Position numbers and translations under genes: made by a program. Shown here one piece after another: positions 4,454 through 15,162 of a stretch of 64,000 bases of DNA; position 1 is the stretch's first letter, and every line of letters starts with the position of its first letter. The DNA is from Acidimicrobiia bacterium (lineage in GTDB: Bacteria; Actinomycetota; Acidimicrobiia; Spongiisociales; CAZKJJ01), in the NCBI GenBank assembly GCA_046759765.1, contig JBHICV010000001.1, positions 125 through 64,124 on the forward strand, given 5' to 3'. The notes under the pieces were generated by a model. That model made no database searches, was not told the origin of the DNA, and saw only the letters and a program-made list of their open reading frames with translations.

Positions 4454-4642
4454 ATGTCCTATCGATGTGAGATATGCGGTAAAGAGCCGTCCTTCGGTCG
4501 CAACGTGACGTTCTCGCACAAGCGAACGCCGCGCCGCTGGTTACCCAATATTCAGCGCGTGCGAGTCCGCCACGGGTCGAACAGCCGCCGCATCCGCGTC
4601 TGTACGTCTTGTCTCCGCGCCGGCAAGGTCGAAAAGGCCTGA
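4454..4642 (+). CDS. rpmB: 50S ribosomal protein L28
   Basis: Internal ATG start of the 4400..4642 ORF gives MSYRCEICGKEPSFGRNVTFSHKRTPRRWLPNIQRVRV..., similar to L28 (MSRVCQVTGK...NRSHA...RRFLPNL). RBS-like cgagg sits upstream. Confidence 0.8.
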   Translation: MSYRCEICGKEPSFGRNVTFSHKRTPRRWLPNIQRVRVRHGSNSRRIRVCTSCLRAGKVEKA

Positions 4643-4646
4643 ACGT

Positions 4647-4750
4647 TCTTGTGTCGTTTGAGCACCGTATCGGTAGTTGAACGTCACAAGAATCCCGGGC
4701 GAGATTTCTTGTGTCATTTGACGACCGTATGGGTAGTTGAGCGTCACAAA
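4647..4750. repeat. Two 44-bp imperfect-palindromic direct repeats at 60-bp period, between rpmB and the cold-shock gene
   Basis: ttcttgtgtcgtttgagcaccgtatcggtagttgaacgtcacaag at 4647-4690 and ttcttgtgtcatttgacgaccgtatgggtagttgagcgtcacaaa at 4707-4750. The outer arms CTTGTGTC/GTCACAAG are inverted repeats. Confidence 0.7.
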
Positions 4751-4775
4751 GACGGGGGCGACTACGCTCGGAGGC

Positions 4776-4988
4776 GTGCAAGGCGTGGTCGAGATCTACG
4801 ACCCCAAGACCGGTGCCGGTGTCATTGTTCGCGACGCCGACCGACAACCTGTCTACCTGCGAGCGGGATCGCTGGACGGCAGCCTCTTCCGAACGCTGCG
4901 ACAAGGACAACGGGTCACATTCGAGACCGTCGACGACGAAGGGGGGCCTTACGCGGCTTCCGTGCGACTCGGCTCGGAAGGACAGTGA
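4776..4988 (+). CDS. Cold-shock domain protein (CspA family)
   Basis: GTG start preceded by ggagg. 70 aa, VQGVVEIYDPKTGAGVIVRDADRQPVYLRAGSL...QRVTFE..., matching the CSD pattern (KWFN..KGFGFI...VFVH..I...G...L.EGQ.V.F). Confidence 0.65.
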   Translation: MQGVVEIYDPKTGAGVIVRDADRQPVYLRAGSLDGSLFRTLRQGQRVTFETVDDEGGPYAASVRLGSEGQ

Positions 4989-5027
4989 TCCGACCGTTAT
5001 AGTCCTCGCCAAAGCGAAGGAGGGTTC

Positions 5028-5261
5028 GTGGTTCAGGCGTACGTGCTCATCCAGACAGAGGTGGGCAAGGCCGCCCAGGTGGCAGACGAAGTCCGCAAGA
5101 TCCCAGGAGTCGAATCGGCCGATGACGTCACCGGCCCCTACGACGTGATCGTGAGAGTCTCAGCTGATGACGTCGATGCGCTCGGAAAGCTGGTTGTCGC
5201 CCGGGTGCAAGGGATCGAGGGGATCGTCCGAACCCTCACCTGCCCGATCGTTCACCTCTAG
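5028..5261 (+). CDS. Lrp/AsnC ligand-binding (RAM) domain protein
   Basis: 77 aa with GTG start after aaggagg. The sequence resembles stand-alone AsnC-type RAM domains (VLIQTEVGKAAQVADEVRKIPGVESADDVTGPYDVIVRV). Confidence 0.55.
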   Translation: MVQAYVLIQTEVGKAAQVADEVRKIPGVESADDVTGPYDVIVRVSADDVDALGKLVVARVQGIEGIVRTLTCPIVHL

Positions 5262-6343
5262 CCGAGCTTTTGGGCGATCGTGGCCGCGCTCTGCAGCGCG
5301 GTGCCGTCCGCACCCACTGCTGTGAACTGGCGGGCTGGCTCCCCCTCCGCCTCCGCGAGCATGCCCGACAACAGCTCGAATCTGGATAAGGGGGGATCGA
5401 TCCACAGGTAAGCGGCCAGGCTCCCTGGGATCGTGTTCACCTCGTTGACCCATATGTCTTCGGCACGCACGAGGAAGTCGATCCGGGCCACCGACCGCAA
5501 CGCCGCCACCCGGGCCACCTGCTCGGCGTAGGCGCGTATCCGGGTTTCGATGCTCGACGGAAGCACCGCCGGCAGCTCCCGCTCCGAACCTTCGAGGCCC
5601 CCTCCGGAGAGATATTTCTGGTCGTAGCTGTATATCGGACCGCCCTCGGGCCGGGCGGGCGCTTCCAGAGCCGACAGCTCGAGCTTGGGGTAGGTGCGCA
5701 CAGCGACGTTGACGTCCCTGCTCCCCGAGATAAACGGCTCGGCGACCGCTCCGTCGCGCATCAGCGGTGACGTAGCGGCCAGTTCAACCGCGGTGGCGTA
5801 GTCCGAGACGACCTCGATGCCGATCGACGAACCGCCAAAGCGGGGCTTGACGATGAAAGGGGGCTCGAAGGACGGACTCTCGGCATCTGCATCAACCAGC
5901 TGCCTCGGCAGCGTAGGCAGCCCAGACGCCACCGCGACGGCCGCGAAGGCGAGTTTGTCCATACCCAGCGCCGAGGCAGATGCGCTGGGGCCCGTGTACC
6001 GAATCCCGGCGAGGTCGAAAGCGGCCTGCAAGGAGCCATCCTCCCCGGGGCCTCCGTGGCAGGCATTGAGAACCACCCCGATCTCGATTCGCTTACGCCC
6101 CCTCGAGAAACCCCCACCGGTCTCGGCGCGGAACGAGACCGTGCTCGATTTGGGCGGGGGCCCTTCGACAAAGTCGGCAGCCTCCAGCATCGGGTCGACC
6201 TCGTGCCAAGTGCCGGCTTTGCTCCAGTAGAGCGCGATGGCGGAAGTCCCGCCTTCGACCAGGGTTCGAGCGGCCTGCAGCCCGGTGAGAATGCTGATGT
6301 CGTGTTCGGGAGAGGGTCCGCCGAAGACAACCACGTGTGTCAT
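5258..6343 (-). CDS. ddl: D-alanine--D-alanine ligase
   Basis: ATP-grasp Ddl motifs: MTHVVVFGGPSPEHDISILTG start and the conserved C-terminal NEVNTIPG. The N-terminal extension of the 439-aa ORF is rejected; the internal ATG gives 361 aa. Confidence 0.85.
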   Translation of the reverse strand: MTHVVVFGGPSPEHDISILTGLQAARTLVEGGTSAIALYWSKAGTWHEVDPMLEAADFVEGPPPKSSTVSFRAETGGGFSRGRKRIEIGVVLNACHGGPGEDGSLQAAFDLAGIRYTGPSASASALGMDKLAFAAVAVASGLPTLPRQLVDADAESPSFEPPFIVKPRFGGSSIGIEVVSDYATAVELAATSPLMRDGAVAEPFISGSRDVNVAVRTYPKLELSALEAPARPEGGPIYSYDQKYLSGGGLEGSERELPAVLPSSIETRIRAYAEQVARVAALRSVARIDFLVRAEDIWVNEVNTIPGSLAAYLWIDPPLSRFELLSGMLAEAEGEPARQFTAVGADGTALQSAATIAQKLG

Positions 6344-11978: not shown

Positions 11979-13592
11979 TTAATCCTCCAGAAGTACGTCG
12001 GCGAACTGATCGCGTACGACTTTCTTGTCGAACTTCCCAGTGCCGGTCTTGGGGATCTCGTCGGTGAACTCGATACGATCCGGCAACCACCACTTGGCGA
12101 CCAATCCTCCTAGGTGTTCGCTCAGATCGGCCTCTGTGACTTCAGCTCCCGCCCGCGGTACCACCACAGCCAGTGGTCGCTCTTGCCACTTGACGTGCTT
12201 GACAGCGATCACCGCCGCCTCAGCGACGTCAGGATGGGCCATGAGCGCGTTCTCGAGATCGAGCGAAGAGATCCACTCCCCTCCCGACTTGATGACGTCC
12301 TTAGCCCGATCGGTGATACGAATGTATCCCTCAGGTGTGATCTTGCATACGTCGCCGGTCCGCAGCCAGCCGTCAACGAACGAGTCCGGGCTGCGAGGGT
12401 CACGCAGATACTCGGCCGCGATCCAGGGGCCCCTGATCAGCAGCTCCCCAAAGGCCTCACCATCCTGAGGCAACTCATTGCCCTCTTCATCGACGATCTT
12501 CACTTGCAGGCCCATGATCGGCAGACCTGCCGTCTCGAGGAAGTCCAGCCTGCGCTCGAAGTCCCATTCGGCTGCCTCCGGCTTGAGCTTCGCCACCGAG
12601 GCGATTGGGTTCGTCTCGGTCATCCCCCAGCCCTGAATCACTTCAAGCTCTCGGTTGCGCCAGAACCAGTCGATCATCGCCCGTGGCACCGCCGAGCCCC
12701 CACACAGGAACGCACGGATGGACGAGGTATCTGCCTCCGGGTGCTCGATCAGGTACTGCTGGATTCCGAGCCAAACAGTCGGCACTCCGGCCGAGAAAGT
12801 CACCCTCTCGGTTTCGAATAGCCGCAGCAGTCCTTCGGGCGACAGGTCTGGCCCGGGATACGTGAACTTCGCCCCCGCGGCGGTGCCCATGTACGGATAG
12901 CCCCACGCCGCGGCGTGGAACATCGGTACTACCGGCAGGATGTTGTCGTCCGCCGAGATGGCGATGTTGGCGAGGTTGGAGATGGTGTGTATGTACGTCG
13001 ACCGCTGGGTATAAGCGACCCCCTTGGGGTTGCCCGTGGTCCCGGACGTGTAGCAGTACATCATCGGTGAGCGCTCGTCGAGGGGCGGCCAGGTTGCCTG
13101 GGGCTCAACCCCGTCGATGAGGTCTTCATAGGCGATGGCGTTGGGAAGATCGACCTCCGCGCTCTCACCCATGACGACATAGGCCTCGACGTCGGGGAGG
13201 TCGGGAGCGATGCGGGAGACGAGCGGCACCAAATCTGGGTCGACGAAGATCACGCGGTCTTCGGCGTGGTTGGCGATGTAGGTCAGCTGGTCCGGAAAGA
13301 GCCGTATGTTGAGTGTGTGGCAGACGCGGCCCGTGTTGGCAGTGGCCCAGTAGATCTCATGGTGGCGCTGGTTGTTCCAGGCGAACGTTCCGACCACCTG
13401 TCCCTCTTCGATGCCGAGCCGATCCCGGAGAGCGGCCGCCAAACGCCGCACCCGCTCATCCGTGTCGGCGTAGGTCGTCCGCTTGATCGACCGATCCGCT
13501 TCCACGGATACGATCTCCTGGGACGGATATATCCGGACCGCGTTGTCGTAGAGAGTGGACAGCAAGAGCGGAAAATCCATCATGTGCGCCAT
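11979..13592 (-). CDS. fadD: Long-chain fatty-acid--CoA ligase (AMP-dependent synthetase)
   Basis: 537 aa with AMP-binding motifs YTSGTTGNPKGV, GWGMTE and the C-terminal ...IPKTGTGKFDKK. Confidence 0.85.
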   Translation of the reverse strand: MAHMMDFPLLLSTLYDNAVRIYPSQEIVSVEADRSIKRTTYADTDERVRRLAAALRDRLGIEEGQVVGTFAWNNQRHHEIYWATANTGRVCHTLNIRLFPDQLTYIANHAEDRVIFVDPDLVPLVSRIAPDLPDVEAYVVMGESAEVDLPNAIAYEDLIDGVEPQATWPPLDERSPMMYCYTSGTTGNPKGVAYTQRSTYIHTISNLANIAISADDNILPVVPMFHAAAWGYPYMGTAAGAKFTYPGPDLSPEGLLRLFETERVTFSAGVPTVWLGIQQYLIEHPEADTSSIRAFLCGGSAVPRAMIDWFWRNRELEVIQGWGMTETNPIASVAKLKPEAAEWDFERRLDFLETAGLPIMGLQVKIVDEEGNELPQDGEAFGELLIRGPWIAAEYLRDPRSPDSFVDGWLRTGDVCKITPEGYIRITDRAKDVIKSGGEWISSLDLENALMAHPDVAEAAVIAVKHVKWQERPLAVVVPRAGAEVTEADLSEHLGGLVAKWWLPDRIEFTDEIPKTGTGKFDKKVVRDQFADVLLED

Positions 13593-13672
13593 GGGTGCCT
13601 CCTGAGGCGGCTCGGCGCCATCCTACGCACGGTGCGAGTTGTCAGTAATCAGTTCTCAGTGCCTCCCCCTAA

Positions 13673-13696
13673 CCCCCTCCCGCATGCGGGAGGGGG
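13673..13696. promoter_or_regulatory. Perfect 24-bp palindrome CCCCCTCCCGCA|TGCGGGAGGGGG upstream of fadD
   Basis: Exact inverted repeat about 80 nt upstream of the fadD start and downstream, in the minus sense, of the sRNA-like unit 1. No flanking T-tract, so it looks more like an operator or structural element than a terminator. Confidence 0.4.
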
Positions 13697-13787
13697 AATC
13701 GGCGGCGTAGCCGGCGTTCGTAGGGGGAGGTGGCCCGGAGGGCCGGAGGGGGTTAACTGACAGAACTGACGACTGAAACTCCCCCAA

Positions 13788-13929
13788 TGAGAAAACCCCG
13801 AGGGAGCCGAAACCCTCTCGGGGCTTTCCTCTCGATCCAGACTCCACCCCGAAGGGTAGTCTCCGAACCGAAACCCGAATAAGTCTCTCGACTTATTCGA
13901 CGCCACTATGGGGTTGCCCCCGTAGCGGT
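13788..13929 (-). ncRNA. Candidate structured small RNA, copy 1 (own promoter and intrinsic terminator)
   Basis: Minus strand: -35 TTGACG (13964-13959), 17-nt spacer, -10 TATGTT (13941-13936). The 3' end is the GC hairpin CCCCGAGAGGGTTTCGGCTCCCTCGGGG followed by TTTTCTCATT. Internal hairpins include CGAAUAAGUC/GACUUAUUCG and a CCC-UUCG-GGG tetraloop. Confidence 0.4.
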
Positions 13930-14087
13930 GCAGAGAACATAAGTGATCACCCCAAGCCCGTCAAACCAGACACGAGGAAAGTTTTCGCGAGAAAACCGCC
14001 AGTTATCAGTGATCCGTCATCGGTTTTCAGCATTCAGAGAACGCTGGGCGGCTGAAGACTGAGAACTGACATGGGAAACTGCAGGAA

Positions 14088-14230
14088 TGAGAAAACCCCG
14101 AGGGAGCCGAAACCCTCTCGGGGCTTTCCTCTCGATTCAGACTCCAGCCCCGAAGGGTGGTCTCAGAACCGAGACCCGGATAAGTCTCTCAACCTATCCG
14201 ACTCCGCTATGAGGTTGCCCCCTTAGCGGT
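14088..14230 (-). ncRNA. Candidate structured small RNA, copy 2
   Basis: Same promoter (TTGACG 14265-14260, -10 TATGTT 14242-14237) and terminator as copy 1. Stems differ from copy 1 by compensatory changes: CGGAUA/UAUCCG versus CGAAUA/UAUUCG, and CCGCUA/UAGCGG versus CCGCUA/UAGUGG (G-U wobble only in the minus-strand sense). Confidence 0.4.
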
Positions 14231-14367
14231 GGAGAGAACATAAGGCGTCACCGCAGGCCCGTCAAACCAGAAACCAGGAAAGTTTTCGCGGGCAAATAGC
14301 GGTCAGCTGACACCTGAAAGCTCTTTTAAATTGCATCCATGTCATTCGCATCCCGTATGCTCTTGGT

Positions 14368-15162
14368 ATGACGTTGGAGAACCTCTCACCGTCCCGGGCC
14401 GCGGACTTCAAATCATGTCCACAGCTGTTCAGGTTCCGCGCCATCGATCGTCTGCCGGAGCCCCCGACCTCCCATCAAGCGCGGGGAACGACCGCTCACT
14501 TGGCCCTGCAAGAGCTATTTGATCTACCGGCCACAGAGCGGACCCCCCACCGCTTGCACGAGCTTTTTCGCGAGGCCTGGGCCTCTTTGCGCCTCTCAGA
14601 AGAGTTCGCCGGCCTGTTTGATGACGTAGAAGCCGAGCGCGAGTGGGGTCTGGAGAGCCTGGCGCTCCTTTCTAACTACTTCTCGGTGGAAGACCCGGCG
14701 CAAGTCGAGCCCCGAAGCCGTGAGTACGACATGACCGAGGATCTGGATGGCATTGTTATCCGCGGCATTCTCGACCGAATCGACGAGCTGCCGGACGGCA
14801 ACCTCATCATCACCGACTACAAGACGGGCAAGCCGCCCCCGGAGCGCTACGCGTTGTCCTCGTTCTTCGCCTTGAAGATCTACGCCTTGCTCATCCGCAA
14901 GCAGACGGGACGCACCCCCATTGAGCTGCGGCTCCTGTATTTGAACGGTCCGGCCCTTTATCGACTGTCAATCTCCGACGCCCAGCTCGACGGGATGGAG
15001 CGCCAGCTCCGGGCACTATGGCAAGCCATCAACCGGGCGATCGAACGCGATTTCTTCCCCCCGCGGGCGGGGCCTCTGTGCAACTGGTGCTCCTTCCAGG
15101 AGATCTGTCCGGCTTGGACGGAGTTGCCCGTGCCCGCACTCGCCGGTGCTGCTAGCTCCTGA
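14368..15162 (+). CDS. PD-(D/E)XK nuclease family protein (RecB-like/Cas4-like with C-terminal Cys cluster)
   Basis: 264 aa with the ITDYKTGK nuclease motif and C-terminal CNWCSFQEIC cysteines typical of Cas4/AddB-type Fe-S nuclease domains. Confidence 0.7.
   Translation: MTLENLSPSRAADFKSCPQLFRFRAIDRLPEPPTSHQARGTTAHLALQELFDLPATERTPHRLHELFREAWASLRLSEEFAGLFDDVEAEREWGLESLALLSNYFSVEDPAQVEPRSREYDMTEDLDGIVIRGILDRIDELPDGNLIITDYKTGKPPPERYALSSFFALKIYALLIRKQTGRTPIELRLLYLNGPALYRLSISDAQLDGMERQLRALWQAINRAIERDFFPPRAGPLCNWCSFQEICPAWTELPVPALAGAASS

Follow-up and report, generated by a model that had tools for sequence, protein, structure and literature searches.

Organisation of the two RNA units

The 64,000-nt stretch of Acidimicrobiia genome analysed here (contig JBHICV010000001.1), referred to below as the window, contains an intergenic gap of 775 nt between a gene for a fadD-like acyl-CoA ligase and a gene for a PD-(D/E)XK nuclease. 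The gap contains two direct copies of a unit of about 235 nt. Very probably, each unit is an independent minus-strand gene for a structured RNA that belongs to a new family. The original prediction, made from the letters of the window, had described a tandem pair in which each unit has its own promoter and terminator; both elements, which are themselves predicted, were found in both copies (Table 1). The two units share 86-89% identity (86.8% over 235 nt). An exact period of 300 bp had also been claimed. The two direct copies are there, but the period is not exact: the spacing is 300 nt in the 3' part and 301 nt in the 5' part, because of one 1-nt indel. Tandem Repeats Finder did not report the two units, which is expected for two diverged copies with a long period.

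The putative sigma-70/sigma-A-type promoters consist of two hexamers 17 nt apart (TTGACG and TATGTT), match the consensus at 9 of 12 positions, and have similar motifs co-located in the relatives. The near-consensus promoter proposed for each unit could thus be located in both. A promoter scan gave 3 sites, against 0.3 expected. The 9-mer CGCGAAAAC upstream of the promoters occurs twice in the window, once per unit, and nowhere else. About 140 nt past each promoter, as had been noted, a GC-rich hairpin is followed by a U tract. The 28-nt hairpin CCCCGAGAGGGUUUCGGCUCCCUCGGGG and the following UUUUCUCAUU are found at 14123-14096 and 13823-13796 on the minus strand, exactly two occurrences in 64 kb versus 0 expected. 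With a stem of 13+4 pairs followed by the U tract, these hairpins are predicted to be intrinsic (Rho-independent) terminators.

Table 1. Features of the intergenic region and its flanking genes (window coordinates; MFE, minimum free energy; H1-H4, hairpins in 5' to 3' order).
Feature	Position	Strand	Remarks
Full duplicated segment, unit 1 (copy nearer fadD)	13762-13995	-	From box to about 25 nt beyond terminator
Full duplicated segment, unit 2 (copy nearer PD-(D/E)XK gene)	14062-14296	-	
Upstream box CGCGAAAAC, unit 1	13981-13989	-	Part of near-palindrome GTTTTCTCGCGAAAAC
Upstream box CGCGAAAAC, unit 2	14282-14290	-	Ends 16 nt upstream of -35 hexamer
Predicted sigma-70/sigma-A-type promoter, unit 1	13936-13964	-	-35 TTGACG 13959-13964; 17-nt spacer; -10 TATGTT 13936-13941
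Predicted sigma-70/sigma-A-type promoter, unit 2	14237-14265	-	-35 TTGACG 14260-14265; 17-nt spacer; -10 TATGTT 14237-14242
RNA copy 1, about 145-147 nt	13786-13932	-	MFE -86.2 kcal/mol, z -7.7; model R1 112.8 bits, E 7e-32; family covariation
RNA copy 1, H1	13900-13931	-	
RNA copy 1, H2	13876-13899	-	
RNA copy 1, H3	13830-13873	-	
RNA copy 1, H4 (terminator)	13790-13829	-	Tail 13786-13789
RNA copy 2, about 146-148 nt	14086-14233	-	MFE -80.9 kcal/mol, z -6.1; model R1 105.3 bits, E 1e-29; family covariation
RNA copy 2, H1	14204-14229	-	GCAA tetraloop
RNA copy 2, H2	14176-14201	-	GAGA tetraloop
RNA copy 2, H3	14130-14174	-	UUCG tetraloop; conserved AGAC/GGAGU internal loop
RNA copy 2, H4 (terminator)	14090-14129	-	UUCG loop; U-rich tail 14086-14089
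Acyl-CoA (fadD-like) ligase gene	11979-13592	-	Downstream of units, co-oriented
PD-(D/E)XK (RecB/AddB/Cas4-like) nuclease gene	14368-15162	+	264 aa, PF12705; divergent from units

RNA fold and comparison of the two copies

The minus-strand RNA of both copies folds into four hairpins, with the caps GCAA, GAGA, UUCG, and UUCG from H1 to H4; the several hairpins described earlier for the transcribed segment were thus recovered with strongly negative z scores (Table 1). The plus strand gave -64.8 and -57.6 kcal/mol for copies 1 and 2, which is about 20 kcal/mol weaker. The "conserved loop" GGGGGCAACC of the original prediction is not a loop. It is a stem (GGGG/CC(C/U)C) closed by a GCAA tetraloop of the GNRA type.

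The RNAs of copies 1 and 2 differ at 15 positions. These differences touch 10 base pairs, 8 of which are paired in both copies: one by a double change (G-C to A-U), and seven by G-C/A-U to G-U transitions, which preserve pairing in the minus-strand sense only. Two cases had been singled out before, and both are genuine. The stem CGGAUA/UAUCCG of copy 2 corresponds to CGAAUA/UAUUCG in copy 1, which is the double change, and UAGCGG corresponds to UAGUGG, in which G-C becomes G-U. The two copies alone are weak evidence for compensatory change, but the evidence becomes strong with the family alignment described below.

A small-protein reading of the units was rejected: the ATG lies within the -10 hexamer and is unconserved, a 1-nt indel separates the copies, and the substitutions track base pairing rather than codons.

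Homologues in related genomes

A terminator-derived pattern was run against GTDB genomes, one for each species, and at least 119 stretches matched. The 80 loci listed are all from metagenome-assembled genomes (MAGs) labelled Acidimicrobiia or Actinomycetota, or from bins with the same Acidimicrobiia-type locus, some of which are labelled Acidobacteriota or simply "bacterium". The same pattern gave no match in the viral contigs scanned, which argues against a phage or mobile origin. With nhmmer, 84 full-length homologues were found in the fetched loci. A covariance model (R1) gave 67 matches above 105 bits, of which 56 are distinct; these are referred to as type A. In the window, model R1 matched exactly the two copies.

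The fadD-like ligase of the window has 100% identity to a protein of an Acidimicrobiia MAG. Loci were also fetched by synteny, through protein homologues of this ligase and without use of the RNA sequence. Six of these seven loci contain the RNA together with its boxes and the same terminator stem. L001 has one RNA copy in the same place, the 3' 48 nt of which are identical to the window; L002 and L003 contain diverged copies, and the RNA is also present in L123, L125, and L126. In L124 the RNA is absent, and the ligase homologue lies in a different neighbourhood. As judged by sequence, both window copies belong, as paralogues, to a family that occurs throughout the matching Acidimicrobiia genomes. 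The duplication of the unit took place after the L001 lineage had branched off, since the two copies resemble each other more closely than either of them resembles L001.

Some genomes have several type A genes. All four copies in L009 are identical; L050 combines three identical copies with one variant, and L044 two identical copies with one variant. The identity of these array copies suggests recent amplification or gene conversion, with selection for dosage. The arrays consist of three or four type A genes interleaved with another RNA of the cassette set described below (L009 4040-5803, L050 3875-5643, L044 1785-3268, and L102 686-2257).

A side observation concerns the taxonomic labels. Family or cassette RNA genes were present in MFD bins titled "uncultured Acidobacteriota bacterium" (L011, L019, L026, L043, L045, L049, L059, L074, L076, and L081). 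The fadD/FabI locus is also present in L026, L059, and L081, accompanied in L026 and L081 by the nuclease gene, at 70-75% protein identity. The Acidobacteriota labels of these bins may be wrong.

Covariation and the transcribed strand

The structure of 54 base pairs was counted on an alignment (A4) of the 56 distinct homologues, using five measures and 500 shuffles. Standard pairs occupy 90.6% of the cells, versus 55% when the partners are slid by one column and 79.6% in the shuffles. Changes on both sides (double compensatory changes) were found in 38 of the 54 pairs, and 386 double-change cells were observed versus 121 in the shuffles. None of the 500 shuffles attained the observed value on any of the five measures. 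Pairs with double changes are distributed over H1 (7 of 9), H2 (11 of 11), and H3 (10 of 12), and the lower stem of the terminator (H4) does not vary in A4. The RNA structure is under selection, and the four-hairpin fold is supported by covariation. An analysis of this kind on nhmmer homologues had been suggested as a check, and its outcome was clearly favourable.

The family alignment also bears on the strand. It contains 404 G-U cells versus 91 A-C cells, and the mirror structure on the opposite strand pairs only 80.2% of the cells. This excess of G-U over A-C, together with the orientation of the promoter and terminator, establishes the minus strand as the transcribed one. The structured minus-strand RNA that had been proposed from two copies is thus upheld by 56 distinct homologues.

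Search for known RNA families

All 4227 models of Rfam 15 were searched with cmscan, at E values up to 10 for the unit region and at the gathering score for the whole window. The whole window gave no match. The best matches in the unit region were chance fragments with 10-19 bits, against thresholds of 37-88. In the 21 related loci searched, one tRNA was the only match. The scan had been recommended in the original prediction, which could not place the RNA in 6C, 6S/Ms1, SRP, or tmRNA; no Rfam 15 family matches it either. Full-text literature searches found no paper on small RNAs of Acidimicrobiia.

The 6C RNA (RF01066) and the Ms1/6S RNAs were considered as candidates. They are similar in some respects, since they are small or medium-sized, highly structured RNA genes of the abundant type, from the same phylum and with conserved genomic positions. 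The hairpins of 6C RNA carry conserved C-rich loops, whereas the loops here are GCAA, GAGA, UUCG, and UUCG, and the 6C covariance model did not match; 6C was rejected. The Ms1/6S RNAs are rods of 180-300 nt with a central bubble. According to a report on Ms1 (PMC9130861), its gene is flanked by genes for an oxidoreductase and a HAD-IB hydrolase / "inhibition of morphological differentiation" protein. The flanks here are the PD-(D/E)XK nuclease and acyl-CoA ligase genes, and the RNA has about 147 nt and four separate hairpins instead of a 6S-like rod of about 300 nt; the Ms1 and 6S models did not match at E values up to 10 either, and both RNAs were also rejected.

Upstream box, shared terminator and the wider cassette set

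Each of the 64 distinct type A members whose upstream sequence is long enough has a CGCGAAA box 56-60 nt before the RNA start. A second box lies about 21 nt further upstream (about -76 to -80) in 39 of them; there is a single box in L001 and in each window copy. CGCGAAA has a background frequency of 0.25 per kb per strand, and the other CGCGAAA sites in the window lie within genes, with no promoter or terminator nearby. The relatives contain -35 (TTGAC/TTGC) and -10 (TAnnnT) motifs at the corresponding place. The position-locked box is probably an activator site or a UP-like element, as its sequence context suggests. It is not known to match any regulator motif.

A related sequence was observed at the other end of the gene. 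In 39 of the 64 type A members, CGCG comes after the U tract, giving TTTCGCG, the inverse of CGCGAAA (e.g., GGGGTTTTTCGCGTC in L043, L048, and L008). It is not present after the terminators of the window copies (GGGGTTTTCTCATT). A DNA site, an extension of the terminator stem, and coincidence are the candidate explanations.

The terminator hairpin (CCCCGAGAGGG...CUCGGGG) is invariant, with a fixed G-U and an A/C mismatch, and is common to other RNA bodies. About 1 Mb of fetched Acidimicrobiia sequence was searched for such cassettes; this sample is biased, as the loci were chosen by the terminator. Among 143 distinct double-box promoters, 141 have a family-type terminator within 1 kb, and the median distance from the box to the terminator end is 231 nt. 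The bodies between them, of about 100-600 nt, form about 27 blastn clusters. The type A cluster has 53 distinct members and includes both window copies. The type B cluster has 35 members, which have CUUCGG as the H2 cap and CCGGGGGCCCGCUUUCCCGG in place of H3. Many of the further bodies are longer RNAs rich in UUCG/GNRA loops (186-600 nt). A GNRA-capped hairpin at the body start (positions 12-15) was found in 106 of 149 bodies versus 1.8% of shuffles; types A and B together comprise 88 units. None of the cassette RNAs was found in Rfam (21 related loci).

It is possible, although we propose it only tentatively, that the window genes are members of a modular RNA system specific to Acidimicrobiia, in which at least 27 body clusters share one box promoter and one invariant 3' hairpin and lie near AdnAB-like and PD-(D/E)XK genes. 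In that case, the shared box would be recognised by one transcription factor and the 3' handle by one RNA-binding protein. The system might then be a functional counterpart of the Hfq/ProQ sRNA networks, or it might supply RNA partners of the neighbouring nuclease/helicase machinery.

One of the longer RNAs, named RNA-2, was observed between the type A/B gene and fadD in many relatives (L003 about 4840-5330, L026 about 2300-2818, L047 about 4590-4900 on the minus strand, L073, L079, L090, and L091). It has at least 400 nt, is rich in UUCG tetraloops, contains the conserved motifs GGGGAUCCUUCGGGAUCGUCGAGCGG and GGAGUUGGGUCCCCGGCCCGAC, and has the same terminator hairpin at its end. No Rfam model matches it, and the window does not contain it. 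Public gene calls also cover structured RNA between the nuclease gene and fadD (L002 4576-5409, L126 5110-5811, and L125 5790-6350). These 186-277-aa "proteins" have no Pfam hit, and are probably spurious open reading frames (ORFs) in high-GC RNA genes.

Proposed mode of action

Taken together, the units are best explained as free-standing, co-regulated, trans-acting structured small RNA (sRNA) genes, probably protein-binding, and fair confidence is placed in this explanation as a whole. The CGCGAAA box near -55 would recruit a DNA-binding activator, or serve as a UP-like element, for a sigma-A-type promoter. Transcription would start about 7 nt past TATGTT and end at the intrinsic terminator. 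As the covariation shows, the RNA of about 147 nt folds into H1 (GNRA cap), H2 (GAGA cap), H3 (UUCG cap and the AGAC/GGAGU internal loop), and H4 (terminator, whose stem sequence is invariant). The RNA would act in trans and not on fadD in cis, and its expression would be co-regulated with that of the other box-carrying RNA genes. The 3' hairpin might be the common handle for one RNA-binding protein across the cassette set.

Protein binding is the likeliest mode of action, but it is proposed more cautiously than the explanation as a whole and falls somewhat short of even odds. It is suggested because the RNA is nearly fully paired, because conservation is concentrated in the tetraloops, one internal loop, and the invariant 3' hairpin, and because some genomes are multi-copy. 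The conserved positions are the GNRA tetraloop, specifically the GAGA tetraloop, the AGAC/GGAGU internal loop, and the sequence of the 3' stem. An RNA of this protein-binding or sequestering kind would be of the 6S, CsrB, or Y-RNA type; the invariant 3' hairpin in about 27 body clusters and the multi-copy arrays bear on this assignment indirectly.

Several points weigh against the proposed explanation. Every homologue is from a MAG. The promoter, start site, and termination are predictions, and the protein-binding mode is argued from shape and conservation. The invariance of the terminator stem is partly by construction, as most loci were fetched by the terminator pattern; independent observations of it come from the six loci fetched by synteny and, with minor changes, from array copies outside the pattern (L009, L044, and L050). 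Pairing could take place at the purine-rich single strand that precedes the terminator (GAGAGGAAAG), and a functional link could underlie the conserved divergent arrangement with the nuclease gene.

Among the alternatives, the one that survives best is a pair of trans-acting base-pairing sRNAs in the style of PrrF1/PrrF2, OmrA/OmrB, or the CiaR-dependent csRNAs, which would act antisense on mRNAs through a short accessible segment. Candidates for this segment are the purine-rich sequence on the 5' side of the terminator and, in the type B RNAs, the C-rich loop GGCCCGCUUU. The free-standing gene in varied contexts, its own promoter and terminator, the tandem paralogues, and the upstream boxes typical of factor-controlled sRNA genes would all fit this alternative. 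However, few bases are unpaired, and the conserved ones form 4-nt GNRA/UUCG loops and a 2x2 internal loop instead of a seed. A crude and weak duplex screen against the 43 translation-start regions of the window was nonspecific: its output consisted of long GC-rich artefacts, and the flanking genes were not enriched, with fadD ranked 32nd and the nuclease gene 43rd. Base pairing is considered a real but minor possibility.

Genomic context

The window flanking proteins were searched with tblastn. The usual neighbourhood in the relatives consists of AdnAB-like helicase-nucleases, glutamate dehydrogenase, the PD-(D/E)XK nuclease, the divergent RNA gene(s), fadD, and a FabI-like reductase. Of 73 RNA-carrying loci, 40 have a PD-(D/E)XK homologue within their 8 kb. 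The divergent nuclease gene is a more consistent neighbour of the RNA than fadD. The RNA gene is inverted relative to fadD in L070, L093, L098, and L125. In L002, L003, L123, L125, and L126, the RNA is separated from fadD by a bPH_2/SHOCT gene, by a second, much larger RNA gene, or by both. The RNA is relocated in L013, L043, L049, L074, and L076. The best-scoring type A genes are found in unrelated surroundings, adjoining genes for a SpoIIE phosphatase, luciferase-like monooxygenases, an adenylate cyclase, an aldehyde dehydrogenase, and an MMPL transporter.

The RNA might instead function together with the DNA-repair genes next to it, which encode the PD-(D/E)XK nuclease and the AdnAB-like helicase-nucleases, for example by regulating the nuclease or by serving as its decoy or cofactor. 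Across the class, the RNA gene most often lies divergent from the nuclease gene, and in some loci the boxes abut the nuclease promoter. Type A genes are far from the nuclease gene in several genomes, however, and a conserved gene order can be inherited without any functional link. We regard such a partnership as improbable.

Some details of the nuclease gene were observed in passing. It appears to be leaderless: the motif TGTCA(T/C)TC-N8-TAnnnT is followed, after 6-7 nt, by ATG/GTG (window 14334-14370, plus strand). The motif was found upstream of the PD-(D/E)XK gene in 57 of 72 related loci, and the CGCGAAA boxes of the RNA directly abut it in some of them. It resembles the PafBC-dependent (RecA-independent) DNA-damage promoter of Actinomycetota, TGTCRGTG-N8-TAnnnT.

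The original prediction had also offered a duplicated attenuator or riboswitch-like leader of fadD. With such a leader, signal-dependent read-through from the unit promoters would continue into fadD. In the window and L001, the units are indeed co-oriented with fadD and lie 68-190 nt upstream of it, and window copy 2 alone has an alternative fold, in which the 5' arm of the terminator pairs with the H3 apex. This part of the prediction is not sustained, because the RNA is inverted, moved, separated, or multi-copy in some genomes. The RNA is also found in loci without fadD, and each unit has its own promoter. No conserved antiterminator was found: when the transcripts were folded without the 3' arm of the terminator, H1-H3 stayed intact and the 5' arm remained unpaired with upstream sequence in 7 of 8 members. 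A promoter-like TAGGAT (13620-13625) and a Shine-Dalgarno sequence AGGAGG (about 13598-13603) precede fadD and are shared with L001, so that fadD probably has its own promoter, as far as the sequence indicates. A cis-acting leader is very improbable.

A mobile or selfish repeat without RNA function, of the type of a miniature inverted-repeat transposable element (MITE) or a repetitive extragenic palindrome (REP), is the least credible alternative and was rejected: the local duplication, the inverted-repeat, CTGA-rich sequences flanking the units, and the short inverse box copy (TTTCGCG) after the terminator in many relatives would suit it, but there are only two copies in 64 kb, the genomic position is conserved by synteny across the class, extensive compensatory change keeps the RNA helices, the G-U strand bias fits a transcript, no terminal inverted repeats surround the unit, and the viral contigs gave no match.

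Relationship to known RNA systems

The free-standing structured sRNA genes proposed here may be compared with several known systems. Tandem pairs or arrays of factor-controlled sRNAs include PrrF1/PrrF2 (Pseudomonas), OmrA/OmrB (E. coli), the CiaR-dependent csRNAs (Streptococcus), LhrC1-5 (Listeria), and the NsiR1 arrays (Nostoc). As in those systems, paralogues lie side by side, each with its own promoter, a conserved upstream box, and its own terminator, and the copy number is variable. Those sRNAs, however, have single-stranded seeds and act by pairing, most of them with Hfq, whereas the Acidimicrobiia RNA is almost fully paired, capped by tetraloops, and unrelated in sequence.

In the Hfq/ProQ-type 3' module of enterobacterial sRNAs, the terminator hairpin is a shared protein handle. 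The situation here is similar in that many unrelated bodies share one type of 3' hairpin, which would fit one RNA-binding protein. The difference is that the stem sequence itself is invariant here, and not the shape alone. To our knowledge, Actinomycetota lack Hfq and ProQ.

The RNA also resembles orphan structured motifs of the Weinberg/Breaker type (such as raiA, HEARO, and ROOL), which are likewise known from sequence only, show strong covariation, and are restricted to particular lineages; the GNRA tetraloops, which suggest tertiary contacts, are a further similarity. The differences are that none of the Rfam models of these motifs matches it, that it is far shorter than ROOL or HEARO, and that its promoter and terminator are obvious. 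The RNA is a new family of free-standing bacterial structured sRNA gene, which is duplicated in tandem in the window.

The covariation support is unusually strong for an unannotated RNA, and the family is suited to an Rfam-type description. Acidimicrobiia are abundant in soil, water, and wastewater, and have hardly been studied at the RNA level. The DNA box and the RNA hairpin provide two handles for finding a regulator and an RNA-binding protein. Their study could open up post-transcriptional regulation in a lineage without a known general RNA chaperone. Cataloguing these RNA genes would also correct the hypothetical proteins called over RNA-2 in the relatives.

Other sequences in the intergenic region

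The sequence that separates fadD from the terminator of copy 1 contains an inverted-repeat element of about 130 nt (window 13630-13790, minus strand). Its arms are GAGTTTCAGTCGTCAGTTCTGTCAGT and ACTGAGAACTGATTACTGACAACTC, and it folds with -88.7 kcal/mol (z -7.2). It is absent from the matching place in L001. The spacer between the units (13996-14085) contains a shorter, CTGA-rich relative of this element, the left arm of which lies inside the duplicated segment. The element may be a MITE/REP-like insertion that mediated the duplication of the unit. At the start of the ligase gene (13578-13592), the deposited protein (P0001, 533 aa) begins four codons downstream of the longest ORF start (537 aa).

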